Shown: positions 17,715 through 33,033 of the stretch, piece after piece
How positions within the stretch are numbered: position 1 is the first letter of the stretch
Layout: every line of letters starts with the position of its first letter
Assembly: GCA_965208125.1 (NCBI GenBank)
Contig: OZ242320.1
Span: forward strand, 2,336,001 to 2,400,000
Direction of reading: 5' to 3'
Length of the DNA: 64,000 bases
From: Candidatus Latescibacterota bacterium
Lineage (GTDB): Bacteria > Latescibacterota > UBA2968
Made by a program: the position numbers and the translations under genes
Notes under the pieces: model-generated
Told to the model about the DNA's origin: nothing
The model's input: only the letters and a program-made list of their open reading frames with translations
The model's database searches: none

Positions 17715-18959
17715 ATGAACTATAGCGATCAGGATATTGCGCGCCAACTGCGGCTGGGTGAGGACAGCCAATGGGAATTTAAGCAGATCGCGTTTTCCGG
17801 GACTCGACCAAGAAGTCCGAGCCGTGATGATCTGGCCGATGAGATCGCGGCTTTTGCCAACACTGATGGCGGAATACTATTATGTGGAGTAACCGATAAG
17901 GGCGACGTCCAGGGGCTGTCGCGCGAGCAGATGGATGAATTGGAGAGGCTTCTGGTAGATATCTGCACCGATGTGATCAAGCCTCTGATCCGTCCCATCA
18001 TCCTTCGACGCATCGTAGATGAACATCCGTTGTTGCTGGTCGAAATACCACAGGGCTATGCCCAGCACGATAGCCCCGGTGGCAGCTACCATCGAGTCGG
18101 CAGTTCGAAGCGCAGAATGACAAGCGATGAGCGACTGCGTCTGGCACAACGGCGTAGTCAGACAAGATTCCCCTGGTTTGATGAGAAAACAGTTCCGGAA
18201 ACAGGTTTCCGCACGCTGGACGAAGCACTGTGGAAGCCGATGTTGAGTGCTGAGGGTGCCGCCGATCCTCCGGTGGCACTGGAAAAGATGGGATTGCTGT
18301 CCAGAGGCGAGAATGGTGTCAGACGTGTCACTGTGGCCGGTGTGATGTTGTGCAATCCCGCCCCGGAGGAGTGGTTGCCAAATGCCTGTATCACCGCTAC
18401 TTGCTATCGAGGTAAAGACCGCACCACAGGTCATATTGACGCGCAGACCATCGGCGGCCCTCTGAAACGGCAAATTGCCGAAGCCGTGGCCTTCGCGGTC
18501 AGGAATATGTCTATCGCGGCACATAAGACGCCAGCGCGTGCGGAACTGCCCCGGTATAGTGAAGAAGCACTGTTCGAGGCTGTGGTCAACGCTGTGGCAC
18601 ATCGCGACTATTCAATACAAGGCAGTAGAATCCGTCTTTCCATGTTCGAGGATAGGATCGAGATCCAATCGCCGGGATCACTGCCGAACAACCTGACCGT
18701 GGATGATATGCCGCACCGGCAGGCGACGCGAAATAAACTGCTGACCTCATTGCTCAGGCGCGTTCCCGCTTCCGGTATCAGGGGTGCTGGTGGGCAGTTG
18801 TATCTCATGGAACGACGAGGAGATGGGATTCGCATCATGCTGCGCGAAACCCAGGAACTCAGCGGCAGGCTCCCCAAATTTCAACTGATCGCCGACTCCG
18901 AACTGCTTGTGACAATACCCGCAGCTTCGGCTGATTGGCGGTACAATTCGAAAATTTAA
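17715..18959 (+). CDS. AlbA_2 (Schlafen-like) domain plus HATPase_c_4 ATP-binding protein
   Basis: GEDSQWEFK, IAAFANTDGGILLCGVTD, EAVVNAVAHRDY, IEIQSPGSL, TRN, MERRGDG. Confidence 0.85.
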   Translation: MNYSDQDIARQLRLGEDSQWEFKQIAFSGTRPRSPSRDDLADEIAAFANTDGGILLCGVTDKGDVQGLSREQMDELERLLVDICTDVIKPLIRPIILRRIVDEHPLLLVEIPQGYAQHDSPGGSYHRVGSSKRRMTSDERLRLAQRRSQTRFPWFDEKTVPETGFRTLDEALWKPMLSAEGAADPPVALEKMGLLSRGENGVRRVTVAGVMLCNPAPEEWLPNACITATCYRGKDRTTGHIDAQTIGGPLKRQIAEAVAFAVRNMSIAAHKTPARAELPRYSEEALFEAVVNAVAHRDYSIQGSRIRLSMFEDRIEIQSPGSLPNNLTVDDMPHRQATRNKLLTSLLRRVPASGIRGAGGQLYLMERRGDGIRIMLRETQELSGRLPKFQLIADSELLVTIPAASADWRYNSKI

Positions 18960-18983: not shown

Positions 18984-19262
18984 ATGATTCGCAGCTTTAG
19001 AGACCGAAATACCCAGCGTTTCTTCGAAGGATATCACGTCGCAGCGTTTCAAGGATTCGCCGACCAGGCTACGCGCCGTCTCGCTTATCTGGACAGCGCG
19101 GAGTCCCTTCAGGATTTGGCTAACTTGCGGAGTAACCGCCTGGAGGCTTTGCGGGGAAACCGATCCGGCTGGTACAGCATTCGGATCAATCAGCAATGGC
19201 GGATATGCTTCCGCTGGGAGGACAACGAGCCTGTTGATGTGGAGATCGTGGACTATCACTAA
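18984..19262 (+). CDS. higB: HigB (RelE/ParE-family) toxin
   Basis: MIRSFRD, NRLEALRGNRSGWYSIRINQQWRICF, VEIVDYH. Confidence 0.92.
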   Translation: MIRSFRDRNTQRFFEGYHVAAFQGFADQATRRLAYLDSAESLQDLANLRSNRLEALRGNRSGWYSIRINQQWRICFRWEDNEPVDVEIVDYH

Positions 19263-19276
19263 CAAGGAGTAAGAAT

Positions 19277-19582
19277 ATGGACGTAAAAAATGGTATGAGA
19301 CCTGTGCATCCCGGTGAGATATTGAGCGAGGAACTTGACACACTCGGTCTGTCGGCCAACGCGCTGGCTAAAGCACTGGATGTATCGCCAGGCTGCGTCA
19401 CTGAAATCCTCAATGGTCAGCAGAGTGTAACCGCCGACATTGCACTCAGGTTAGCACGCTATTTTGGGACGACACCGCAGGTCTGGTTGAACTTGCAGAA
19501 GACCTACGAGCTTCGTCAAGCTGAGATTGATGTGGGTGAGCGCATTGCTGAGCGCGTGAAACCCCGAGAAATGATGGTGTAA
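19277..19582 (+). CDS. higA: HigA antitoxin
   Basis: PVHPGEILSEE, ALRLARYFGTTPQVWLNLQ. Confidence 0.92.
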   Translation: MDVKNGMRPVHPGEILSEELDTLGLSANALAKALDVSPGCVTEILNGQQSVTADIALRLARYFGTTPQVWLNLQKTYELRQAEIDVGERIAERVKPREMMV

Positions 19583-19585
19583 AGG

Positions 19586-21148
19586 ATGACTAAGACGAGA
19601 GATGATAAGCCTACCAATTACGAAGCGGAATTGTGGCAGATGGCCGATGCACTGCGCGGGAGTATGGATGCAGCGGAGTACAAGCATGTTGTGCTGGGTC
19701 TGATTTTTCTGAAGTATATTTCCGATGCTTTTCAGGAGGCGCACGCGCAATTGGAGTTGGAGCGAGATGAGGGCGCTGATCCCGAGGATCCGGATGAGTA
19801 CCGCGCTCAGAATATTTTCTGGGTGCCGCCCGAGGCGCGCTGGGCGATTCTTCAGGCTGCTGCGAGACAGCCGACGATCGGACAAAAGGTGGATGATGCG
19901 ATGGTGGCTATTGAGCGCGATAACGAGGCGTTGAAGAATGTGCTGCCCAAGGATTACGCCCGAGAGGCATTGGATCAGACCCGTTTGGGCCAGGTTATTG
20001 ATTTGATCAGCAATATTGATATTGGCGATTCAGAGGCGCGTTCTCAGGATGTGTTGGGCCAGGTTTATGAGTATTTTTTGAGTCAGTTTGCTCTGGCAGA
20101 AGGGCGCAAGGGGGGCGAGTTTTATACGCCGCGTTGTGTGGTGAATTTGCTGGTGGAGATGTTGGAGCCGTATAACGGGCGGGTTTATGATCCGTGTTGC
20201 GGTTCTTCTGGTATGTTCGTGCAGTCTATCCAGTTTATTCAGGCGCACCAGAGCGGGAATGGCAATGGCGGCAATGCGCGGGCTGATATTTCTATTTACG
20301 GGCAGGAGTCTAATTATACGACGTGGCGTTTGGCGAGGATGAATCTGGCAATTCGGGGGATTGAAGGGCAGATCGCGCACGGGGATACGTTTCACAATGA
20401 CCGCTATCCCGATATGCGAGCGGATTATATTCTGGCTAATCCTCCGTTTAATGTGTCGGATTGGGGTGGCGACCGGTTGCGCGAGGATCAGCGCTGGCAG
20501 TATGGCGTACCGCCTGTGCGGAATGCCAATTTTGCCTGGGTGCAACATATTGTGCATCATCTTTCGCCGACTGGTACGGCGGGTTTTGTGCTGGCAAATG
20601 GGTCAATGTCGTCCAACCAATCCGGCGAGGGCGAGATACGCAAGAATTTGATAGAGGCGGATCTGGTAGATTGTATGGTGGCACTGCCGGGGCAGCTTTT
20701 CAGATCGACACAGATTCCCGCGTGTCTCTGGTTTCTGGCGCGTGACCGGCATAATGGAAGGTTCCGCGATCGCAGGGGGGAGGTCCTGTTTATTGATGCG
20801 CGCAAGCTGGGATATATGGTAGATCGCACGCAACGGGAACTTGCAGGGGAGGATATTGCCCGTATTTCGGATACTTACCACGCCTGGCGGTCTGGTGCGG
20901 ATTATGACGATGTCCCCGGTTTTTGCAAGGGTGCCGCGCTGGAAGAAGTTCGCCGACACAGCCATATTCTCACGCCCGGTCGCTATGTGGGTGCCGAGCC
21001 GCAAGAGGACGATGGCGAACCTTTTGAGGAGAAGATGAAGCGTCTGGTCGCCCAATGGCAAGAGCAACAGGCTGAGGCGAATAGGCTGGATGCTGCGATT
21101 GATGCGAATCTGAAGACGCTTGGATTTGGGGTGTCCAATGAGCTATAG
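19586..21148 (+). CDS. hsdM: Type I R-M methyltransferase subunit M
   Basis: [34 protein letters not shown] (m6A). Confidence 0.96.
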
Positions 21149-21166: not shown

Positions 21167-21460
21167 ATGGACGTAAAGAACGGTATGAGACCTGTGCATC
21201 CTGGTGAGATATTGAGCGAGGAACTCGAAACACTCGGCCTGTCGGCTAATGCGCTGGCTAAAGCACTGGATGTGTCGCCCGACTGCGTCACTGCGATTCT
21301 CAATGGTCAGCAGAACGTAACCGCCGACATCGCACTCAGGTTAGCACGCTATTTCGGAACGACACCGCAGGTCTGGTTGAATCTGCAGAAGACCTACGAG
21401 GTGCGCCAAGCTGAGACCGATGTGGGCAAGCGCGTGAAACCCCGGCAAGTGATGGCGTAG
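21167..21460 (+). CDS. higA: Second HigA antitoxin copy
   Basis: Closely similar to 19277-19582 in DNA and protein; no toxin alongside it. Confidence 0.9.
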   Translation: MDVKNGMRPVHPGEILSEELETLGLSANALAKALDVSPDCVTAILNGQQNVTADIALRLARYFGTTPQVWLNLQKTYEVRQAETDVGKRVKPRQVMA

Positions 21461-21463
21461 AGG

Positions 21464-22801
21464 ATGACAAGGAAAGAGTTGGTTATGGTGAGTGATGGTT
21501 GGGTATCACTGCGTCTCGGTGACGTTTGTACAAAAATTGGAAGTGGGGCGACTCCGCGCGGTGGAAAAGAGGTCTATTTGGAGGAAGGGCCTTATGCGCT
21601 AATCAGAAGCCAAAACGTTTACAACAATGGATTCAGTTATGATGGCCTGGCGTTTATCAACCAGCAGCAGGCGAATGACCTGAAAAATGTTGAGGTCTTT
21701 GTTGATGATGTTTTGCTCAACATCACTGGGGATTCGGTGGCTCGGGTATGTCAGGTTACACCAGATGTACTCCCTGCTCGTGTGAATCAGCACGTCGCGA
21801 TCATCCGTCCGGACCCCAATAAGCTGTCGCCACGCTTTCTGCGCTATTTCCTTGTAACTTCCGAAATACAGGCAACGCTCTTGTCATGGGCAGGTTCTGG
21901 CGGAACAAGAAATGCTCTGACTAAGGGCATGATCGAATCGTTCGATGTACAAGCACCGATGGACATAGCTGAACAACGCGCCATCGCTCACATCCTCGGC
22001 GCGCTGGACGACAAGATCGAGTTAAACCGCCGCATGAACGAAACGCTGGAAGAGATGGCTCGCGCCCTGTTCAAATCGTGGTTCGTCGATTTTGATCCCG
22101 TCCGTGCTAAAATGGAAAGCCGCGATCCCGGTCTGCCAAAACACCTCGCCGACCTATTTCCTAACCGCCTCGTGGATTCAGAATTGGGACTGATACCGGA
22201 GGGGTGGGAGGTGAAGGCACTGAATTATTGTGCGGATCTCAACCCAGAGTCTTGGTCTCGGATCAGCTATCCAGAAAGTGTTGAGTACGTTGACCTTGCA
22301 AATACAAAGTGGGGTATCATCGAAGCTATTCAGTACTATTTTTGGAAGGATGCACCAAGCAGGGCAAAACGTGTTCTGCGGTCTGGGGACACTATTGTGG
22401 GGACAGTTCGCCCAGGGAATGGTTCCTACTCTTTCGTTGGACACGAAGGTCTTACAGGGAGTACTGGATTTGCAGTGCTTCGCCCAATTCACCCGAGGTA
22501 CAGAGAGTTAGTGTATCTATCCGCCACAAGCGCAGAAAATATAGAACACTTGGCTCACCGTGCGGATGGTGCTGCATATCCAGCGGTTCGACCAAACGTT
22601 GTTGGTGAAACCCGAGTTATAACGCCAAGTGTTGATACCGATATCTTGAATTTTTTTTCTATGACTGTTGCTCCGATTATCAACAGAATGGAATCGAACA
22701 AGATAGAATCTCGTACTCTCGCCGCTTTAAGGGATGCGCTGTTGCCGAAGCTCATCTCAGGTAATATGCGGGTGAATCTCCCCAAAAACTTATCGAGGTA
22801 G
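21464..22801 (+). CDS. hsdS: Type I R-M specificity subunit S
   Basis: KIGSGATPRGG, EQRAIAHILGALDDKIELN, IPEGWEV, LAALRDALLPKLISG; two TRDs. Confidence 0.95.
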   Translation: MTRKELVMVSDGWVSLRLGDVCTKIGSGATPRGGKEVYLEEGPYALIRSQNVYNNGFSYDGLAFINQQQANDLKNVEVFVDDVLLNITGDSVARVCQVTPDVLPARVNQHVAIIRPDPNKLSPRFLRYFLVTSEIQATLLSWAGSGGTRNALTKGMIESFDVQAPMDIAEQRAIAHILGALDDKIELNRRMNETLEEMARALFKSWFVDFDPVRAKMESRDPGLPKHLADLFPNRLVDSELGLIPEGWEVKALNYCADLNPESWSRISYPESVEYVDLANTKWGIIEAIQYYFWKDAPSRAKRVLRSGDTIVGTVRPGNGSYSFVGHEGLTGSTGFAVLRPIHPRYRELVYLSATSAENIEHLAHRADGAAYPAVRPNVVGETRVITPSVDTDILNFFSMTVAPIINRMESNKIESRTLAALRDALLPKLISGNMRVNLPKNLSR

Positions 22802-22805
22802 AAAT

Positions 22806-24587
22806 ATGACTCCGTCAGTATTCATTTCATATTCTTGGGACGATGATACTCACAAGGAGTGGGTCAGAAAGCTTGCTAAGCGGCTTCGCCAAGATGGTGT
22901 TGACGTTATTCTTGACAGGTGGGCAACAGCACCTGGAGATCAGCTATCTACCTTCATGGAGAAGGCTATTCGTGAAAACCAGTTCGTCCTCATTATCTGT
23001 ACACCTCGTTACAAGAGCCGATCAGATGAGCGTGAAGGCGGCGTAGGCTACGAGGGCGACATTATGACTGCAGAAGCGATGACTGAGCAGAACGACCGTA
23101 AGTTTATTCCGGTCTTACGAAGGGGCACATGGAATGAGGCTGCACCTTCTTGGCTACGCGGAAAAATTTATATTGATCTTTCCGCTGACCCCTACTCCGA
23201 GCAAAATTATAAAGACCTTGTTAGCACATTGCTGAGAAAACGAGAGACTCCACCACCCATTGGCAGGGAAAGAGTAACGATATCTGAATCAAATAAGTCT
23301 GATTCCAAACAACTTGATAAGATTAAGCAGCCCAAGATAGCTACTTTAGTTGTTTTCCTAATTTTTTGCATTGCTGTAGTAGGCTACATAGGCTTCGAAA
23401 AATTCTGGAAAAATGAATATGCACAAGATGCTGAGCACCTCGTTGAGGAGATTAAAAAGAACCCCGATGAATCCGCTGTGCATCTTGAGTTTACCATAAC
23501 CAGAACCGTGACCGCTAAAATTGTCGTCGATAACCTTAAAGAAGTAGAGCAGACAGTCGCGAACATCCGTGAAAATCCCAGGGCATTGCTGATAGAAAAG
23601 ACAATTACTCAGGCCGTTTCTCTCCAGCAGCAGGGTAAGAAAGACGAGGCAATCGAGAAATGGCGTGACGTTGTCAAAACAGAAGGGATCGATAATGCTC
23701 AAGCCGCGAGAGCGTGGTTCTCCGTCGGTTATTTGATCCAAGATGAAAACCCGGAAAAGGGTATCTCGGCCTATAACCAAGCAATCTCTCTGAACCCAGA
23801 CTACGCCGAAGCCTACAACAACCGGGGCGTTGCGAAGGACGAATTAGGGCAACATGATGAGGCTATCACTGACTATAATGACGCCATTCGGTTGAAATCA
23901 AACTACGCCGAAGCCTACAACAACCGGGGTGCCGCGAAGGCCGAATTGGGACAACATGATGGTGCTATTGCAGACTATGAAGAAGCGATTCGCCTGAAAC
24001 CGGACTACGCTGAAGCATACTACAATAGGGGGAATCAGAAGGCCGAATTGGGGCAACGTGATGATGCTATTGCTGACTATAATGAGGCAATTCGTTTGAA
24101 ACGAGACTACGCCAACGCATACTACAACCGTGGTAATGCGAAGTTTTTATTGGATCGTCACGAAGAGGCTATCGCTGACTATGACGAAGCGATCCGTCTG
24201 AAACGAGACTACGCCGAAGCCTACAACAACCGGGGTGCCGCGAAGTTTTTATTGGATCGTCACGAAGAGGCTATCGCTGACTATAATGACGCCATTCGTG
24301 TGAAGCCCAACTCTGCCGACGCATACTACAACCGGGGGAAAACGAAGGCCGCACTGGGGCAATATGACGAGGCTATCGCTGATTATGACGAAGCGATCCG
24401 TTTGAAACGAGACTACGCCGAAGCCTACAACAACCGGGGTGTTGAGAAGGTCGAGTTGGGTCTAATAGACGAAGCGCGACAGGATTTCGAGAAGGCACGA
24501 GATTTAGCTCGAGATGCCGGTAATGACCGCCTCGCAGACTTGGCTGAGCAACTTTTGCGAGCTTTCGATAGCCAAAAAGATGAATGA
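22806..24587 (+). CDS. TIR/SEFIR domain - TM helix - TPR repeat protein
   Basis: VFISYSWD...GVDVILDRW...GGVGYE TIR_2/SEFIR; hydrophobic IATLVVFLIFCIAVVGYIGF; about eight 34-aa AYxNRG...AIADYDEAIRL TPRs. Confidence 0.9.
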   Translation: MTPSVFISYSWDDDTHKEWVRKLAKRLRQDGVDVILDRWATAPGDQLSTFMEKAIRENQFVLIICTPRYKSRSDEREGGVGYEGDIMTAEAMTEQNDRKFIPVLRRGTWNEAAPSWLRGKIYIDLSADPYSEQNYKDLVSTLLRKRETPPPIGRERVTISESNKSDSKQLDKIKQPKIATLVVFLIFCIAVVGYIGFEKFWKNEYAQDAEHLVEEIKKNPDESAVHLEFTITRTVTAKIVVDNLKEVEQTVANIRENPRALLIEKTITQAVSLQQQGKKDEAIEKWRDVVKTEGIDNAQAARAWFSVGYLIQDENPEKGISAYNQAISLNPDYAEAYNNRGVAKDELGQHDEAITDYNDAIRLKSNYAEAYNNRGAAKAELGQHDGAIADYEEAIRLKPDYAEAYYNRGNQKAELGQRDDAIADYNEAIRLKRDYANAYYNRGNAKFLLDRHEEAIADYDEAIRLKRDYAEAYNNRGAAKFLLDRHEEAIADYNDAIRVKPNSADAYYNRGKTKAALGQYDEAIADYDEAIRLKRDYAEAYNNRGVEKVELGLIDEARQDFEKARDLARDAGNDRLADLAEQLLRAFDSQKDE

Positions 24588-24627
24588 ATCCCTGGATTGA
24601 CTGAAGCCGATAAGGTGGATTGATGTT

Positions 24628-25020
24628 ATGAACGCCGACAATCTCTGCGCTACTATTGGCAAAACGCTACCGTCGTATTTCGAATGTTCACTGGCTCCAC
24701 AAGAAGGAGTGCGGGTGCGAACACCGCTAATGTATCCCGATGGCAGCATAGTGGATGTGTTCGTTTTGGAGCGCGGCAACGGCTATATTGTCACAGATTT
24801 CGGCGATGCTATGGGTTGGCTTCGTATGCAATCGGTAAATACTCAGCCGTCGCCACAACAAAATTTGGTGATCAAAGAGATATGCCAAACTCTCGGTATA
24901 GACTTGCATAGTGGCCAGTTAGTGCTCAGGCCTGATGTAAATGATACGCTGGAGGAAACAGTGCTTCGCGTAGCGCAGGCGGTCGTGCGCGTATCTGATG
25001 TTGTTCACAGCAAGGTCTGA
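24628..25020 (+). CDS. DUF1828 domain protein (short form)
   Basis: VRTPLMYPDGSIVDVFV...IVTDFG pattern. Confidence 0.75.
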   Translation: MNADNLCATIGKTLPSYFECSLAPQEGVRVRTPLMYPDGSIVDVFVLERGNGYIVTDFGDAMGWLRMQSVNTQPSPQQNLVIKEICQTLGIDLHSGQLVLRPDVNDTLEETVLRVAQAVVRVSDVVHSKV

Positions 25021-25151
25021 CAAGCCGCGAACCCGCACAGAAAATCCTAATGACCACTCTCACTGAATTTGACAAGTTTGCGCTTAACATTTCCTGTACC
25101 TGCACCTAATTATTAGGAACGAACCTGCGAATTAGAGAGGTTAAGATAAAC

Positions 25152-27035
25152 ATGGCAGATAATAGCGAGAAGATTTGTTTTGTAATTGCGCCCATCGGCG
25201 AACCGGGGTCTGATACCCGCACACGATCCGACCAGGTTTTAAAACATATTATTCGTCCGGCAGTAGGGTCTTGTGGCTACAAAGCTGTTCGTGCCGACGA
25301 AATCGCCGAGCCAGGTATAATTACTAATCAGATAATTCGACATGTTGTAGATGATCCTTTAGTCATAGCCGATTTAACAGGACAGAACCCCAACGTTTTT
25401 TATGAATTAGCCATTCGGCATGCCGTCCGTAAGCCGCTCGTCCAGATCATTGACAAAGTCGAGGCTATTCCTTTTGATGTCAGGTCAATGAGAACAATAG
25501 GGGTTGATCACCGAGACCTCGATAGCGTTGAAGAAGCCAAAGCCGAAATTAAAAAACAAATTCAATTCTTTGAAAAAAGTTCATCAAATTTGGAGACTCC
25601 TATTTCGGTAGCACTCGAGGGTAAATCTATTGATAAGATTAATCGGCGTATGAACGCCGAAACAGTTGCCGATAAACCTGAAGAAGTGGGGAAGATCGTT
25701 ACCAACGAGGGTGAAAAATACACAGTATCGCCGATAGATAAAGCAATTTCCCAGGCCGTTTTTCTCGATCAGCAAGGGAAGAGAGACCAAGCAATCGAGA
25801 AATGGCGTGCTGTTGCCCTGGTCGCGGAAGAAAGCGACGGTGACCTCGCTGCCAAAGCCTGGTATTCTGTTAGCTATCTGTCTTGGGATGAAAATACGGA
25901 AGATAGCTTATTGGCCAGCGACGAAGTGATCCGTTTGGAGCCAGACTTCGCCGAGGCATATAACATCCGGGGAAATGCGAAGGCCGTACTAAACCGGAAC
26001 GAAGATGCCATTGCTGACTATGATGAAGCGATCCGTTTGAAATCAGACTACGCCAATGCATACTATAACCGGGGGACTGCGAAGGACGACTTAGGCCATC
26101 ATGAGGATGCCATTGCCGATTTTGACGAAGCGATCCGTTTGAAACCAGACTTCTTCCTGGCATACAACAACAGAGGGAATGCGAAGGCCGTACTGAATCG
26201 GAACAAAGATGCCATCTTTGACTATGATGAAACGATCCGCCTGAAACCAAACTTCGCCGAGGCATACGCCAATCGGGGGAATATTAAAGCCGACCAGGAT
26301 CGTTACGAAGATGCCATCGCTGACTATGACAAGGCAATTGGTCTGAAGCCAAACTTGTCTGGATTTTACAATAGCCGAGGTATTGCGAAGGCTGAATGGG
26401 GTCATTATGATGATGCCATCGCTGATTGTGATGAGGCGATCCAGTTGCAACCAGACGATGCCGAAGCATATTACAACCGGGGGAATGTGAAGGCCGACCA
26501 GGGACGTTACGCCGAGGCCACTGCTGACTATGATAAAGCGATTAGCTTGAAACCAGACTACGCTGACGCTTACTGTAATCGAGGGGATGCGAAGGCGGAA
26601 CAGAATCGCTACGAAGATGCCATCGCTGACTATGATGAGGCGATTCGATTGCAACCGGATGATGCGGACGCTTACTGCAATCGGGGGGATACAAAGGCCG
26701 ATCTGGGTTGTTACGAAGACGCCATCACTGACTATGATGAGGCGATCCGTTTGGAACCAGACGATGCGGACGCTTACTGCAATCGGGGTACTGCGAAGGA
26801 CAGATTAAGCCAGCATGAGGACGCTATAGCTGATTATGATGAGGCGATTCGGTTGAAACCAGATTTTGCTGAAGCATATTACAACCGGGGGAATGCGAAG
26901 GCGAAATTGGGACGAAATGACGGGACACGGAAGGACTTAGAGACTGCGCTTGAACTGGCGCAGAATGCCAACGATACGGACTTAATGGACGAGGTGAAGC
27001 AATTACTTCGTGATCTCGACGCCGATGACACATGA
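25152..27035 (+). CDS. Nucleoside 2-deoxyribosyltransferase-like domain plus TPR repeat protein
   Basis: CFVIAPIG...RADE...VIADLTGQNPNVFYELAIRHA...IPFDV; about ten TPRs. Confidence 0.88.
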   Translation: MADNSEKICFVIAPIGEPGSDTRTRSDQVLKHIIRPAVGSCGYKAVRADEIAEPGIITNQIIRHVVDDPLVIADLTGQNPNVFYELAIRHAVRKPLVQIIDKVEAIPFDVRSMRTIGVDHRDLDSVEEAKAEIKKQIQFFEKSSSNLETPISVALEGKSIDKINRRMNAETVADKPEEVGKIVTNEGEKYTVSPIDKAISQAVFLDQQGKRDQAIEKWRAVALVAEESDGDLAAKAWYSVSYLSWDENTEDSLLASDEVIRLEPDFAEAYNIRGNAKAVLNRNEDAIADYDEAIRLKSDYANAYYNRGTAKDDLGHHEDAIADFDEAIRLKPDFFLAYNNRGNAKAVLNRNKDAIFDYDETIRLKPNFAEAYANRGNIKADQDRYEDAIADYDKAIGLKPNLSGFYNSRGIAKAEWGHYDDAIADCDEAIQLQPDDAEAYYNRGNVKADQGRYAEATADYDKAISLKPDYADAYCNRGDAKAEQNRYEDAIADYDEAIRLQPDDADAYCNRGDTKADLGCYEDAITDYDEAIRLEPDDADAYCNRGTAKDRLSQHEDAIADYDEAIRLKPDFAEAYYNRGNAKAKLGRNDGTRKDLETALELAQNANDTDLMDEVKQLLRDLDADDT

Positions 27036-27052: not shown

Positions 27053-27949
27053 TCATGCATCTAACACGCGCTGGAATGCTTCGAGATTGGGCACCTGTAT
27101 CGCCGCGCGGTGCAACTGCTTGAGGTGTTGCAAATCTTCGATGGCGGCAATGCGAGCAGTTAGGGGGTGTGTTTCGGGCATATCAAATCGGATCTCCAAT
27201 ACATCGAGAAGATCTTCAATGGCGCGTTGCCTGCCTCCTTGCTCAAAACTTTCCTCTCTGCTTTGTTGGGTAAGGGATTGAAAAAGAGATGATTCGCGGA
27301 TGAGATCCATGATGCCCTCCTTGAAAATGATAGCAGAAATCGTTTCAGAATCATATACCAACTCGCTCAAGGCCACCATCCCAGCCAGATAATCGGCTTT
27401 GGGCGACCGAGCTATGGGGTGCGTCCGAGCCGTGTGAATACACTGATGCAACCACGCATCCGAGGCCATCCCTTCAGGTGGCTTCATCAATGGCGTGAAA
27501 GGTATCAGACCCGAATGCCCCGTATCCAAGATGCGTTGGCCTTCTATTTCGATCAGTCTGATCACGCGATACTGAATCGCGATTTGGTAGCCGGGAAGTT
27601 CCTGGACGTAATATCCCAGATCGTTCTGTCCCGCATTGGGACGCAGGTAAATGACATTGGAATAGATCGGCAGACCATGATGCTCAATGGCGTGTCCGAT
27701 ATAGCCAGCCATGCGACGCTCCATAGGCGGATTGGTGCTGTCGGTGGTTTGAAACTCGTTGTGGACTAATGCTTCCTCACCATCAATACGCACGCGAATG
27801 AAGCTGTCGCTACGGCGTGCTCTGACCGTGGGTTGCTCTGTTTCGATGACTTCAATGACCTCGACGTCGTCGCGCGCGAGGGCGAAGCGGGTGAAGTGGT
27901 CGGGATAGTGTTGAATGAGGTATTTGGATATGGTGTCAATGTCTGCCAT
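27053..27949 (-). CDS. Rpn-family recombination-promoting nuclease / putative transposase (PD-(D/E)XK)
   Basis: RRSDSF...HNEFQT...RMAGY...VIYL; C-terminal LEIRF...IEDLQHLKQLHRAA. Confidence 0.75.
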   Translation of the reverse strand: MADIDTISKYLIQHYPDHFTRFALARDDVEVIEVIETEQPTVRARRSDSFIRVRIDGEEALVHNEFQTTDSTNPPMERRMAGYIGHAIEHHGLPIYSNVIYLRPNAGQNDLGYYVQELPGYQIAIQYRVIRLIEIEGQRILDTGHSGLIPFTPLMKPPEGMASDAWLHQCIHTARTHPIARSPKADYLAGMVALSELVYDSETISAIIFKEGIMDLIRESSLFQSLTQQSREESFEQGGRQRAIEDLLDVLEIRFDMPETHPLTARIAAIEDLQHLKQLHRAAIQVPNLEAFQRVLDA

Positions 27950-28449
27950 GTGAGATGCCTCGCGTCTGATGGGGTGAGTGCGTGGGACACACGCAACAGT
28001 CAGACACAAAGCAAATGGCAGGCCAAAAAATGGTAATCCTCCAGAAATTGAGCGATAATTTGTATTGGCGGACGCCTGAACACCATATTGTGCTTTAAAT
28101 ATGCTGTATTGCACACTTGTTCACAACCTGAATTTCAGGTTCGCCTGTTGAAGTGGGAGCGGCACAGAATAATTTTGGATGCGAAAGAGTAAAATTTGAG
28201 CGACGAATGGGCAGTTATGTGAAAGATATGTACCGCTTTTCCTGTGGCTACCGCGATGGTTCTTGTGTAATGTCAGTGATTTATCCACGGTTTAGACTGG
28301 TCGTGCCACAGTGAATGTCTATAGCCATTCCGACCTTGCACGAAAGGCCAATATAGTCTATTATTGTACCAATTTTTTATTAGGATAGAAGTGGTCTGAG
28401 GCTGGGCGAATAGTCTCGCTGGGAATGGACTATCACAATAGAGAGAAAT

Positions 28450-29185: not shown

Positions 29186-29207
29186 ACTTTTTTATGGAGG
29201 CTTGATC

Positions 29208-29486
29208 ATGGGGCGTTCCAAATCCCGACAGACCTGGACCGTTGCAGAAGCTAAGGCTCGCCTTTCCGAGATCTTGCGCCTTGCTGAACAAGAAGGGCCG
29301 CAGCATATCGGCACAAGGAAGTCATTTGTCGTCGTACCCGCCGACGCTTGGTACGCGAAAACGCCACCTCGCAAACCTATGGGGCAGTGGTTGGTTGACA
29401 ACATGCCGCGCGGGATTAATCTTGAAATCCCAAGTCGTCATGAACCTGAACGCGAGATTCCATTTATTTCTGAAGAAGACAAATGA
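29208..29486 (+). CDS. Phd/YefM-family antitoxin
   Basis: WTVAEAKARLSEILRLAEQEGPQHI; GGAGG RBS. Confidence 0.88.
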   Translation: MGRSKSRQTWTVAEAKARLSEILRLAEQEGPQHIGTRKSFVVVPADAWYAKTPPRKPMGQWLVDNMPRGINLEIPSRHEPEREIPFISEEDK

Positions 29487-29902
29487 ACGGTTTTCTCCTC
29501 GACACAAACGTAGTCTCAGAGTTAACAAAGAATGTGCCGAATTCGCAGGTCATTACGTTCCTGGCCGCTCAAAATGATCTGTGGTTGTCGATTATCGTGC
29601 TGCATGAACTGGATTTTGGCTTGAATTTGCTTCCTTTGGGGCGTCGTCGAGACCGTATAAGTGCTGCTTTAGCGGCATTCGTCACGGAGTACGAGGACCG
29701 AATTCTGCCAGTAGATCGTCCAGAAGCTGAACAGGCAGCCTCCCTGAGGGCGCAAGCTCGTCGTTCTGGTCGTGTCCTGCATTTGGGCGATGCGCTAATC
29801 GCTGGTACAGCCAAAACACATAACCTCGCAGTTGCGACGAGAAACGTGGCGGATTTCGATGGCTTAGACGTGGATGTTACCAATCCCTGGGAGGCGACGT
29901 GA
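29483..29902 (+). CDS. vapC: VapC PIN-domain toxin
   Basis: [30 protein letters not shown]. Confidence 0.92.
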
Positions 29903-32900
29903 CAGGCGTCACTGAAGCTACTGTAGAAGATGCCGCGCTTGCTTATTTGGGGGACCTCGGCTGGGGCGTTGTCCATGGTCCCGATATTGCTCCTGATACG
30001 CCGGGGGCAGAGCGAGCGGATTATGGAGATGTGGTTCTGGGGCAGCGGTTGCAGGATGCGCTTGTGCGACTCAATTCTGATCTTCCCGCGGGCGCGTTGG
30101 ATGATGCTTTTCGCAAGTTGACCCGGCTTGAGGGTACATCGCTGGCGTTTCGCAATCGCGCTTTTCATCGTTTGATGGTGGATGGTGTTACGGTGGAGTA
30201 CCGGGATGCGGGTGGGGGTGTGCGTGGGGCGCAGGTGAAGGTTATTGATTTTGACGTTCCCTCCAATAACGACTGGCTCGCGGTCAATCAATTTACGGTT
30301 ACTGAGAATAAGAATACCCGACGTCCGGATGTTGTGCTGTTCGTGAATGGTCTGCCTCTGGGGATCATTGAACTCAAGAATCCGGTGGATGAGGATGCGA
30401 CGATATGGACGGCGTGGCAGCAGCTTCAGACGTATAAGGCGGAGTTGCCGTCTCTGTTTGCGATGAATGCGGCTTTGATGGTTTCGGATGGGATGGAGGC
30501 GCGGGTTGGTACGTTGACTGCCGGGCGCGAGTGGTTTAAGCCCTGGCGTACGATTTCAGGTGAAGGTCTGGCTGATTCCAATATGCCCGAATTGCAGGTG
30601 ATGCTCGAAGGCGTCTGCGATGTCGGGCGTTTTCTTTCGCTGGTGCGCGATTTTGTTGTTTTTGAGGATGATGGCAGTGGTGTGCTGGCGAAGAAGATGG
30701 CTGGTTATCACCAGTTCCACGCGGTGCGGGTGGCTGTGGGTGAGACGCGGCGTGCTGTGGAGTTGCAGCACGTTGGGGGCGCTGAAGGTGGTGGCCGCTA
30801 CGAGTCGGGCCAGCCGGGAGGTGCGCCGGGTGATCAGCGCATTGGGGTGGTGTGGCATACGCAGGGGTCGGGTAAGAGTTTGACGATGGCTTTTTATGCG
30901 GGGGCTATTGTTCGGGATCCGGTGATGGAAAATCCGACGATTGTGGTTTTGACGGATCGCAACGATCTGGATGATCAGCTTTTTGGCACGTTTTCTCGTT
31001 GTCGGGATTTGTTGCGTCAAGCGCCAACACAGGCGAGCAACCGCGCTGATTTGCGTCGCAAACTGTCTGTGGCGTCCGGGGGCGTGGTGTTTACGACTAT
31101 TCAGAAGTTTTTCCCGGAGGAGAAGGGCGATACCCATCCGATGCTTTCGGCACGGCGCAATATTGTGGTTATCGCCGATGAGGCGCATCGGAGTCAGTAC
31201 GATTTTATCGATGGGTTTGCGAGGCATATGCGCGATGCTCTGCCCAATGCTTCTTTTGTCGGTTTTACCGGGACACCTATTGAGTTGCAGGATGCGAATA
31301 CCCGCGCTGTGTTTGGCAATTATATCAGTATTTATGACATCCAGCGTTCTGTAGAGGATGGCGCAACGGTGCCGATTTATTACGAGAGTCGTCTTGCCAG
31401 GCTGTCATTGGACGAGCAAGAGAAACCGACGGTTGATCCGGAATTTGAGGAGGCCACAGAGGGTGAGGAGGTCGAGCGGAAGGAGAAGCTCAAGACCAGG
31501 TGGGCGCAATTAGAGGCGATTGTCGGGACGGAAAAACGGTTGAGGCTTCTTGCCGAGGATATGGTTGCCCATTTTGAGGAACGTCTTGAGGTGATGGATG
31601 GCAAGGCGATGGTTGTTTGTATGAGCCGCCGGATATGTATTGATCTTTATCGGGAACTTGTGCGCTTGCGTCCGCATTGGCATGATGAAGATGATGATGG
31701 GGGAAAGATCAAAGTTGTGATGACGGGTTCTGCATCTGATCCGGGTGACTGGCAGCCGCATATTCGCAATAAGCCGCGGCGCGAGGCTCTGGCGCAGCGG
31801 TTCCGCGATGCGTCCGATCCGCTGAATATTGTGCTGGTGCGCGATATGTGGTTGACGGGGTTTGATGCGCCCAGTTTGCATACGATGTACGTCGATAAGC
31901 CGATGCGCGGGCACGGGTTGATGCAGGCTATTGCGCGTGTCAACCGGGTGTTTAAGGATAAGCCGGGTGGTCTGGTGGTTGATTATCTGGGGCTTGCCCA
32001 CGAACTCAGGTACGCATTGGCGACCTATACTGAGAGTGGGGGTACGGGGAAGACTGCGCTCGATCAGAAAGAAGCGGTGGTGGTGTTGCGGGAGAAATAC
32101 GAGATTTGTTGTGGTTTGTTTTACGGGTTTGATTGGTCCAGATGGGCTACTGGTACGCCTCCGGAGAAGTTGGGGTTGTTGCCAGCGGCACAGGAGCATA
32201 TTCTGGCGCAGAAGGATGGTAAGGATCGCTGTTTGCAGGCGGTTCGGGAATTGTCGCAGGCTTTTGCGTTGGCTGTGCCACACGAGGAGACACGGCGTAT
32301 TCGGGATGATGTGGCGTTTTTTCAAGCTGTGCGGTCGGTGCTGGGTAAGCGCGCGCCAGTTGATGCGCGGCCTCAGGAGGAATTGGATCTGGCCGTGCGT
32401 CAGATTGTTTCGCGTGCGGTGGCGTCCGACGAAGTGACGGATATTTTTGCGGCGGCGGGGTTGGATAAGCCCGATATCTCGGTGTTGTCTGACGAGTTTT
32501 TGGCTGAGGTGCGGGGGATGCCGCAGCGCAATCTTGCGGTGGAGTTGCTTCAGAAGTTGCTCAAGGGCGAGATTTCGAGTCGCATGCGGAAGAATGTGGT
32601 GCAGGCGCGGTCGTTCGCCGATATGCTGGAGCAGACTATCACGCGCTACCAGAATCGCACGATTGAGGCGGCGTATATTATTGATGAGTTGATTAAGCTG
32701 GGGAAGGAGATGCGCGAGGCTCAGGCGCGGGGTAAAGACCTCGGTATGAGTGAGGAGGAGTTGGCTTTTTACGACGCGCTTGAGACCAATGATAGTGCGG
32801 TTCAAGTTTTGGGCGATGAGACGCTTCGCACTATTGCCCGCGAGTTGGTGCGGACTGTGCGGGAAAATGTGACGATTGATTGGACGCTGCGAGAGAATGT

Positions 32901-33033
32901 GCGCGCGAATTTGCGCCGGTTGGTCAAGCGCATTTTGCGCAAGCATGGGTATCCGCCGGATAAAGCGGACAGCGCGACGCTTACGGTTTTGAGACAGGCG
33001 GAGGTGCTTTCAGAGGGGTGGGCTGTGGGATAG
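29899..33033 (+). CDS. hsdR: Type I R-M restriction subunit R
   Basis: [58 protein letters not shown]. Confidence 0.97.

Follow-up and report, generated by a model that had tools for sequence, protein, structure and literature searches.

Why does a type I restriction-modification (R-M) operon carry, between its specificity and restriction genes, two genes whose products agree in their C-terminal parts and differ at their N-termini? The question is raised by a 64,000-nucleotide stretch of the genome of Candidatus Latescibacterota bacterium (assembly GCA_965208125.1, contig OZ242320.1, positions 2,336,001 to 2,400,000 of the forward strand), referred to below as the window. Two co-oriented open reading frames (ORFs) follow hsdS. 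Gene A encodes an N-terminal SEFIR domain, a predicted transmembrane helix and a tetratricopeptide repeat (TPR) array, and gene B encodes a head of predicted MilB/nucleoside 2-deoxyribosyltransferase (NDT)/TIR fold on a related array. A short gene for a DUF1828 protein (DUF1828a) lies between them, and a second one (DUF1828b) is found further downstream. As judged from sequence comparison, structure prediction and genomic position, A and B are most likely self-contained anti-phage suicide switches.

Genes A and B Share a Specific C-Terminal Module

The two proteins were compared by BLASTP and found to be 44% identical over ~360 aligned residues (E 4e-103), from a pre-TPR stretch to the C-terminal cap. 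Thus, the initial annotation, which had described two ORFs directly behind hsdS with a common C-terminal module and different N-termini, was confirmed, including its exact coordinates. Searching the genome of the window with full-length B yielded 33 TPR matches, whereas the 73-aa pre-TPR module found A and B only. Since the module detected two proteins rather than 33, it is specific and not a generic TPR sequence. Its alignment (A3) comprised 23 sequences with a mean column identity of 58%.

This module was used to define the family. In the phylum, 27 copies were found in 21 of 168 genomes, with one or two copies per genome. In a collection of 5.8 billion proteins, at least 758 proteins matched at E≤1e-8 (8,000 candidates scored).

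Gene A Encodes a SEFIR Protein with a Predicted Transmembrane Helix

The head of gene A matched the Pfam families TIR_2 (6.9e-24, 85 bits) and SEFIR (1.2e-18, 68 bits; residues 4–118), and the whole protein matched the bSEFIR model of PADLOC at 1.9e-70. Its TIR part also showed a weak PADLOC match to PDC-S66. Among solved chains, the Bacillus SEFIR structure 5y8e was matched at 6.4e-23 and the best TIR at 4.8e-6. In the accessible text of Millman et al., SEFIR proteins are selected by a SEFIR score above the TIR score in HHsearch; Pfam and solved-chain scores were used here instead. Glu83 of the GVGYE motif and Asp37 were invariant in 35 of 35 aligned homologues, and Glu83 aligned with the Glu of GGVGTE in 5y8e, as anticipated when a TIR/SEFIR head retaining this Glu was first proposed for the gene.

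A transmembrane segment was located at residues 178–197, where the Kyte–Doolittle plot with a 19-aa window reached its maximum of 2.7 (at residue 178). The flanks carry a net charge of +3 on the N-terminal and −2 on the C-terminal side, with five Lys/Arg in the preceding 15 residues and two after the segment. One helix between SEFIR and TPR that is positive on the SEFIR side would place the TPR array outside the cytoplasm. Unlike in gene A, the charges of the membrane form of the family described below weakly predict a cytoplasmic array.

The combination of SEFIR with a transmembrane helix and TPR was rare. Among the 120 listed homologues of gene A residues 1–270, TPR Pfam domains were present in only eight, A's own record counted. 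Most SEFIR homologues share another conserved C-terminal domain (consensus of alignment A4, 35 homologues) and not a transmembrane helix with TPR. The transmembrane linker was seen on the SEFIR side in one of 11 proteins scanned, and this protein was among the six with the pre-TPR signature.

It is known from the accessible part of the Millman et al. preprint that Bacillus sp. NIO-1130 has a SEFIR protein with protective activity against phi29, which is abolished by the exchange D40A. NAD+ depletion by the Bacillus protein by means of the SEFIR domain at its N-terminus is stated in the NARP1 preprint. By its domain matches, gene A is an architectural variant of this already named NAD+-depleting bSEFIR system, and NAD+ depletion by A itself is predicted. 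A literature search by the names bSEFIR and PDC-M24 returned no paper.

The Head of Gene B Is Predicted to Adopt a MilB/NDT/TIR Fold

In NCBIfam, gene B yielded TPR matches alone, and no significant sequence match of its head to solved chains was obtained with either the protein query or the A1 profile. PF13271 (DUF4062) was not detected in the B head at E≤10, and the head of gene A reached it only at 0.12. PF05014 was touched only by P0006, a tandem paralogue of the B head, with 5e-4 and below the family cut-off.

The structure of the head was predicted with AlphaFold 2 on the basis of alignment A1 (48 sequences); folding from the single sequence gave a pLDDT of 37.7. With the alignment, the model reached a pLDDT of 86.9 and showed a five-stranded alpha/beta domain with the flavodoxin-like NDT/MilB fold. 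A Foldseek search against solved structures returned the cyanobacterial NDT 8qc0 first (1.8e-5), followed by MilB, the SPARTA TIR, SARM1 and DNPH1. VIA, which is independent of Foldseek, placed MilB first (Z 13.6, root-mean-square deviation 3.0, 138 aligned residues), followed by the TIR domain of TIR-STING (Z 12.3) and NDTs (Z 12.2, 11.7 and 11.4); the TIR folds (Z 10–12.3) were tied with the NDTs. In a viral library, a family member with 35% identity carried the name 'CMP/hydroxymethyl CMP hydrolase', and its structure superimposed on the B head with TM 0.84. In a protein-language-model atlas, the third cluster was 'Nucleoside 2-deoxyribosyltransferase domain-containing protein' (0.93).

Glu85 of the motif NPNVFYEL was invariant in 48 of 48 aligned homologues and lies in helix 80–92, which follows strand 70–74 of the model. 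The full set of invariant residues in A1 was R23, R25, G42, R47, P54, G55, N79, N81, V82, Y84, E85, L86, A87, R89, H90, P107, F108, D109 and R114, and we infer that the Arg cluster may bind phosphate. At the corresponding place, the B-head family and MilB/BcmB both show the pattern 'hydrophobic strand - D - x5-6 - E - hydrophobic - G/A', as read from a weak alignment. It is plausible from this comparison that Glu85 corresponds to the catalytic Glu of MilB/BcmB. The term NDT-like, as originally applied to a head retaining this Glu, thus held for the fold and the invariant residue and was not matched by a PF05014 hit; it fits the fold and, probably, the chemistry, and by sequence the modelled domain lies outside PF05014, TIR and DUF4062.

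In PADLOC, gene B matched the CBASS 'Effector TIR' model PDLC00733 at 5.5e-8, and all 11 members of the B-head family that were tested, B included, matched it (5e-7 to 4e-25); P0390, which was scanned alongside, does not belong to the family. The family is very large: at a cut-off of E≤1e-3, an exhaustive profile-free search yielded 19,758 cluster representatives, of which 1,489 remained at E≤1e-30. Its members mostly have 230–350 residues with the domain at the N-terminus, and their source annotation is 'hypothetical protein'. Gene B showed neither a transmembrane segment (Kyte–Doolittle maximum 0.86) nor a signal peptide and is predicted to be wholly cytoplasmic.

Full-length orthologues of B were 86–87% identical in three genomes. 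In G020 (L019, G020:C1:4126000-4145900), the orthologue was broken into an 84-residue head piece, a TAG codon and a 296-aa remainder. The hsdR gene of G020 was reduced to a 446-aa ORF that joins its two ends, and this whole copy of the island is decaying.

Different Heads Are Carried by One TPR Scaffold Family

The heads of the 27 copies in the phylum were assigned mainly from the N-termini of 24 copies mapped by tblastn; A and B are those of the window, and the L137 copy had no row of its own. The membrane form accounted for 18 copies, and five NDT-like heads (one of them broken), three SEFIR heads and one PDC-M02B-like head were found. The membrane form begins like a signal peptide, continues with a stub rich in Thr, Pro and Ala and with an amphipathic helix that is conserved, and then has one long transmembrane segment, a coiled coil and TPR. 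Only gene A retained a transmembrane segment among the three SEFIR copies. The PDC-M02B-like head is a domain of ~90 aa in G015 (L130:8750-10486; 1.4e-22).

Among the best 120 database matches of the pre-TPR module, a crude script found 23 NDT-like and two SEFIR heads, and the rest were mostly of the membrane form by eye. For the 49 of the 120 proteins that the script had sorted as 'other', 'TM only' or 'short', inspection by eye gave P0392, P0451 and six truncated entries as exceptions to the membrane form. P0392 carries its own N-terminal head of ~195 aa without a family, and the head of P0451 resembles the PDC-M02B type of G015. Since the membrane form predominates both among the copies and among the best 120 matches, the enzyme-headed proteins are, to judge from these tallies, a minority that derives from a membrane TPR protein.

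Exchange of heads was also seen in hybrids. P0003 combines a B-type head with a cap near-identical to that of A, and P0004 combines a B-type head with a near-identical copy of the A-type transmembrane linker, which was present in one of 44 NDT-side proteins scanned. The B head was joined to TPR in P0003, P0004 and P0016, to pentapeptide repeats in P0027, to HEAT repeats in P0044, to a copy of itself in P0006 and to coiled-coil-like tails elsewhere. In P0005, it preceded the C-terminal body of the PADLOC candidate PDC-S65 (3e-49). Thus, the proposal of interchangeable heads on one TPR scaffold was borne out by the copies in the phylum and by the hybrids.

The Family Occupies a Cargo Slot between hsdS and hsdR and Other Loci with Defence Neighbours

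The position of each copy was surveyed by tblastn of the window's own proteins against the 20-kb stretches around the copies. Sixteen of the 27 copies (in 12 of 21 genomes) lay between hsdS/hsdM and hsdR, and the copy of G011 lay just after hsdM-hsdS, with the contig end following. For ten copies, no hsd gene was detected within ~10 kb by the Hsd queries of the window. The R-M-embedded copies included members of another family of the order (G026) and of another family of the class (G122, G140 and G143). The R-M locus was syntenic in the genomes compared, with HsdM being 76–96% identical.

The same gap held other cargo in the relatives, namely SIR2_2, Abi_C, a UvrD-like helicase with DUF2290, DUF4357, DUF6602, DUF6978 and an insertion sequence (IS) element. 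The SIR2_2 protein of G013 and G014 has 585–592 aa (L016:12591-14348 and L017:7214-8992), an Abi_C/T1RH-like_C protein is encoded in the G013 gap (L016:14481-15629), and in these sister genomes the UvrD-like helicase/DUF2290 pair lies directly before hsdR. Turnover of the slot is fast within one genus, and the original suggestion that the type I R-M locus receives defence cargo agreed with the 16 copies embedded beside this rotating content.

Defence genes were also found near the copies outside R-M. Around these ten loci, five of which belong to one genus, 59 ORFs lay within three genes. They included matches to PDC-S14 (3), Dsr2 (2, E 0), AbiEi (2), AbiEii (2), RmrA (2), PDC-M24B (2) and PDC-S09 (2); as in the other neighbour census given below, the tallies cover the 25 commonest families and had no control set, and numbers of distinct defence neighbours are to be read as bounds.

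Homologues of the B head were present and uncommon on mobile elements, with 60 among 50,697 phage records and 89 among 72,556 plasmid records. In the one phage locus viewed, that of phage SM1, the homologue lay in the lysogeny region. On a Vibrio coralliilyticus plasmid (L145), a TIR gene immediately precedes the homologue, which is joined to a 'TRAFs-binding' TPR-like domain. A fusion of the same type on a plasmid of Agrobacterium sp. MA01 (L146) is clustered with two TIR genes, DUF4231 and genes for a QueC-like protein and a DNA lyase, and a homologue on a Rhizobium plasmid lay among IS elements. With TIR genes beside the homologue at two of the three plasmid loci viewed, a recurrent pairing of TIR and NDT-like proteins outside Latescibacterota is possible.

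DUF1828 Is Linked to HsdR at Least as Closely as to the TPR Genes

The DUF1828 genes a and b had 18% identity (E 0.004), and on this basis their origin as recent duplicates was rejected. Both cover positions 3–130 of the PDC-M24B profile (255/256 positions) and are not full-length (~255 aa); DUF1828a corresponds to the N-terminal half of the type (positions 3–122 of 256). No match to PDC-M24A was found among the six window proteins scanned with PADLOC.

In G004, G017 and G002, HsdR carries DUF1828a-type sequence as an in-frame N-terminal extension; G002 showed no match to the pre-TPR module. The fusion ORF of G004 (L018:14792-18352) encodes 1186 aa with the Pfam domains DUF1828, HSDR_N, SWI2_SNF2, T1R_D3 and T1RH-like_C, and long in-frame ORFs are likewise present in G017 (L015:6059-9619) and G002 (G002:C1 near 5596896); counted as open frames, the fusions reach 1208 aa. 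These fusions are a possible Rosetta-stone link of DUF1828 to type I restriction subunits. Because of them, and because B or a SEFIR-TPR gene is the sole family member elsewhere, we regard DUF1828 as linked to HsdR, or to the site of insertion, no less closely than to the TPR genes. The predicted complex of DUF1828a with HsdR residues 1–340 scored 0.00 and was uninformative in either direction.

Downstream of gene B, orf353 had no match in Pfam, PADLOC or NCBIfam. Its nearest atlas clusters were named 'putative Rpn family recombination-promoting nuclease/transposase' (0.96). In its own genome, 11 copies or fragments were found, several of them with internal stops, and in most relatives synteny places it beside the TPR genes. 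Possibly, orf353 moves or shuffles the cassette.

Layout of the Locus

The R-M system is complete, with hsdM, hsdS and hsdR on the same strand and 7 kb of cargo between S and R (Table 1). Gene A starts 4 nt after hsdS. The G+C content of the stretch from 22 to 29 kb was 0.44–0.52, as compared to ~0.54–0.58 in the flanks, and its GC skew was weaker; because of both features, the stretch fits acquired cargo.

Table 1. Features of the type I R-M locus and its cargo in the window.
Feature	Position	Strand	Evidence or remark
AlbA_2/Schlafen-type gene + HATPase_c_4	17715-18959	+	shortly upstream of R-M genes
HigB/HigA	18984-19582	+	
hsdM, type I R-M methylase	19586-21148	+	Pfam N6_Mtase 4e-106, HsdM_N 1e-26
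Second HigA-like gene	21167-21460	+	between hsdM and hsdS
hsdS, type I specificity subunit	21464-22801	+	Pfam Methylase_S 4.9e-14
Gene A, 593 aa	22806-24587	+	SEFIR (aa 1-140), linker, predicted transmembrane helix, pre-TPR module, TPR array, cap
Transmembrane segment of gene A (aa 178-197)	23337-23396	+	Kyte-Doolittle, charge count
Pre-TPR module of gene A (family signature)	23577-23801	+	alignment A3
TPR array of gene A	23791-24460	+	102-bp tandem DNA repeat, 6.6 copies, 74% matches (Tandem Repeats Finder)
DUF1828 gene a, 130 aa	24628-25020	+	Pfam DUF1828 4.7e-10; PADLOC PDC-M24B 8.9e-37
Gene B, 627 aa	25152-27035	+	predicted MilB/NDT/TIR-fold domain (aa 1-160), linker, pre-TPR module, TPR array, cap; no transmembrane segment
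N-glycosidase-like head of gene B	25152-25631	+	alignment A1, 48 sequences
Pre-TPR module of gene B	25713-25937	+	alignment A3
TPR array of gene B	25923-26902	+	102-bp tandem DNA repeat, 9.6 copies, 69% matches (Tandem Repeats Finder)
orf353, Rpn-like multi-copy gene	27053-28114	-	convergent with gene B; also after TPR genes in relatives
DUF1828 gene b, 132 aa	28638-29036	+	Pfam DUF1828 2.1e-28; PADLOC PDC-M24B 3.1e-50
Phd-like antitoxin	29202-29486	+	Pfam PhdYeFM_antitox 2e-4 (below its cut-off)
PIN toxin	29483-29902	+	Pfam PIN 7e-16; overlaps hsdR start
hsdR, type I restriction subunit	29899-33033	+	NCBIfam TIGR00348 2.2e-168

Several further observations were made on the surroundings. Over nearly the whole window, the GC skew of the + strand was strongly positive (0.2–0.37 per kb), which gives rise to many long spurious ORFs on both strands, and within the island at 17–30 kb both GC skew and G+C fall. 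The HigA-like helix-turn-helix genes at 19277-19582 and 21167-21460 have near-identical N-termini and represent a duplicated antitoxin/regulator within the R-M operon. The AlbA_2/Schlafen gene showed weak PADLOC matches to pAgo and Argonaute-associated models (2e-15), and in relatives from another family (G016, G122, G140 and G143) it lies between hsdM and hsdS. A scan for promoters and terminators gave no excess over shuffled sequences (promoter-like 13 vs. 11.1; terminator-like 4 vs. 7.8) and was not used.

Discussion

We consider it probable, with considerable room for doubt, that A and B are independent single-polypeptide abortive-infection sensor-effectors, which belong to one scaffold family and are carried in the hsdS-hsdR cargo slot. 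The C-terminal TPR solenoid, consisting of the pre-TPR module, 34-aa consensus-like repeats and the cap, would act as the sensor that binds a phage protein, and this binding would bring the N-terminal effector heads together. The SEFIR heads of A would form an NADase, in line with what the accessible NARP1 text states for SEFIR. The NDT-like heads of B would dimerise or oligomerise, as classical NDTs and the effector of retron Ec86 need, and the dimer may act on NAD+ or a (deoxy)nucleoside monophosphate by breaking its N-glycosidic bond. The infected cell would then arrest before phage release, backing up restriction. In the commonest form of the family, the signal-peptide/transmembrane module may be a membrane-disrupting effector, which the SEFIR, NDT-like and PDC-M02B-like heads would have replaced by recombination.

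Several known systems resemble parts of this scheme. The bSEFIR protein of Bacillus sp. NIO-1130 (Millman et al. 2022) shares with gene A the N-terminal SEFIR domain, the GGVG-x-E motif, the single polypeptide and a non-enzymatic C-terminal body; in gene A, however, this body is a predicted transmembrane helix with a TPR array, and gene A lies inside a type I R-M locus. For gene B, the closest parallels in design are Vulcan (NIR/DUF4062-HEAT), one protein that is activated by a small lambda protein and depletes NAD+, and Swarozyc (DUF4062 plus an auxiliary domain), one protein that forms an assembly with the portal of the phage and depletes NAD+, both as described in the accessible parts of the sources. 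Like B, they join a TIR-like glycosidase head with a catalytic Glu (putative in B) to a helical-repeat or auxiliary sensor, whereas the B head lacks a DUF4062 match and its repeats are TPR and not HEAT. The best structural matches of the B head were enzymes, namely the CMP N-glycosidases MilB/BcmB, NDTs and DNPH1, from which it differs by the additional invariant Arg cluster, by its fusion to a sensor array and by the lack of significant sequence similarity.

The effector of retron Ec86, which is NDT-like and acts as a dimer, and the CBASS effector model PDLC00733 are likewise abortive-infection effectors of glycosidase fold. A retron or CBASS operon was rejected, as neither reverse transcriptase/non-coding RNA nor a CD-NTase is encoded near A and B; in contrast to these systems, B would have to be activated through the TPR array joined to its head. 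The Avs/STAND and NTPase-TPR conflict systems are similar in combining an effector head with a TPR sensor and in swapping heads. An assignment to STAND/Avs was rejected, as no NTPase was found between head and repeats in Pfam, NCBIfam and PADLOC scans of A and B. The PDC systems of PADLOC share the R-M embedding and individual parts, with DUF1828 matching PDC-M24B, the head of a relative PDC-M02B and the body of P0005 PDC-S65. 'Guilt-by-embedding', by which genes nested in type I R-M are treated as defence candidates, is the source of the PDC models (Payne et al. preprint), whose accessible text mentions none of DUF1828, M24, S65 and S66. Thus, the initial view of the locus as new with respect to named systems could be kept in part only: gene A matches bSEFIR and the embedding idea has been published, while in the PADLOC scan no PDC model spans the full length of B or of the membrane-TPR form.

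A number of observations weigh against the proposal of independent suicide switches. An external TPR array in gene A, as predicted from the charges, would not fit the sensing of phage proteins in the cytoplasm. The first 160 residues of gene B matched no Pfam family at E≤10, with NDT, TIR, TIR_2 and DUF4062 included in the search, and the placement of Glu85 derives from one non-significant alignment, that of the paralogous domain with BcmB 4jen (E 0.19). The B head is 58–73% identical across phyla including archaea, which is unusually conserved for a defence effector. Since the R-M loci are syntenic kin, the 16 embedded copies do not amount to 16 independent events. For 74 distant homologues of the B head from many phyla, the 136 immediate neighbours were heterogeneous and included many housekeeping genes (IMPDH, AcrB and GAPDH). 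No conserved partner was found among these neighbours, and there were few defence-model matches (type I S subunit, AriA, LmuB, MkoC, mad5/8, PDC-S37 and a pPIWI-associated nuclease). Finally, TPR proteins are common, with ~30 TPR matches per genome in the genomes compared, and they are the predominant 'eukaryotic-like protein' class in sponge Latescibacterota according to the accessible part of the report. The last two facts would also be expected if A and B were eukaryote-like TPR proteins that serve interaction with an animal host or envelope functions and lay in the R-M locus by accident. The relatives are metagenome-assembled genomes of Latescibacterota, the commonest form of the family has a signal peptide and a transmembrane helix, and the topology rule puts the array of gene A outside the cytoplasm. 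However, one head is the named defence domain SEFIR and the other has a glycosidase fold that also occurs in effectors of CBASS, retrons and Thoeris; several families of the class retain the location between hsdS and hsdR, defence genes are neighbours outside R-M as well, and B has neither a signal peptide nor a transmembrane segment. The host-interaction alternative, which had been raised for a symbiont from the start, is thus disfavoured, and we give it a slim chance.

It was also considered whether the genes act jointly. A, DUF1828a and B, possibly joined by the membrane form, could be one cooperative system, for example membrane and soluble TPR proteins bridged by DUF1828. The order of a transmembrane-bearing TPR gene, DUF1828a and a soluble effector-TPR gene recurs in G000 (SEFIR-TM/NDT), G013 (membrane/NDT) and G004 (membrane/SEFIR), DUF1828a also precedes the SEFIR-TPR gene of G011, and on the Vibrio plasmid the TIR gene is directly upstream of the protein with B head and TPR-like domain. 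Yet B is the sole gene of the scaffold family in G014 and G017, where no free DUF1828a lies beside it, and the SEFIR-TPR gene is the sole one in G011. The 18 membrane-form copies are spread over 15 genomes, in ten of which they are likewise alone, and DUF1828a occurs fused to HsdR in three genomes, one of which, G002, gave no match to the module. The initial annotation had combined both TPR genes and DUF1828 into one new module; on this evidence, the claim was not upheld for either the pair or DUF1828, and a cooperative system is unlikely. A more elaborate combination, in which A is a transmembrane immune receptor and the trio of membrane-TPR, DUF1828 and soluble effector-TPR proteins forms one circuit docked on HsdR, appears improbable. 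In such a receptor, the SEFIR NADase of A would be cytoplasmic and the TPR array extracytoplasmic, sensing envelope attack like IL-17/Toll receptors; in such a circuit, DUF1828 would dock on HsdR and failed or hijacked restriction would be wired to nucleotide/NAD destruction.

The genes might instead be accessories or regulators of the type I enzyme, e.g., by making the activity of HsdR or the alleviation of restriction depend on a signal from the membrane or from NAD, with DUF1828 serving for docking. This would agree with the DUF1828-HsdR fusions in three relatives, with the start of A immediately behind hsdS and with the tight co-inheritance of the TPR family and the R-M locus. However, ten of the 27 copies lie where the Hsd queries of the window found no hsd gene within ~10 kb, unrelated self-contained defence genes occupy the same slot, and a change to NADase-type heads is typical of suicide effectors and not of regulators; the chance of an accessory role is slimmer still than that of host interaction. 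There is, finally, a small probability that gene A, perhaps together with B, has no current function and is either a chimera formed by recent recombination or cargo in decay. The helix between head and TPR is rare (one of six SEFIR proteins with the pre-TPR signature and one of 44 on the NDT side), broken copies exist (the interrupted B of G020 and the orf353 fragments), a multi-copy Rpn-like gene flanks the cassette and the 102-bp repeats invite recombination. Against this, neither ORF is interrupted and each keeps every invariant residue of its head, the orthologues of B are closely conserved, and the same linker with the other head in P0004 speaks for selection on that junction.

The design principle and the R-M embedding of the proposed suicide switches are already known, and the most interesting piece is the large unnamed family of MilB/NDT-like heads. 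If B protects against phages, this family, which spans bacteria and archaea and reaches temperate phages and plasmids, would gain a role as a new N-glycosidase immune effector beside TIR, SIR2, SEFIR and NIR. The TPR scaffold is a natural experiment in which the same sensor is combined with membrane, SEFIR, NDT-like and other heads in one chromosomal slot; it may serve to study how sensors and effectors recombine and to find the phage trigger. For the biology of symbionts, it follows as a caution that some of the 'eukaryote-like' TPR proteins counted in their genomes may be immune proteins.

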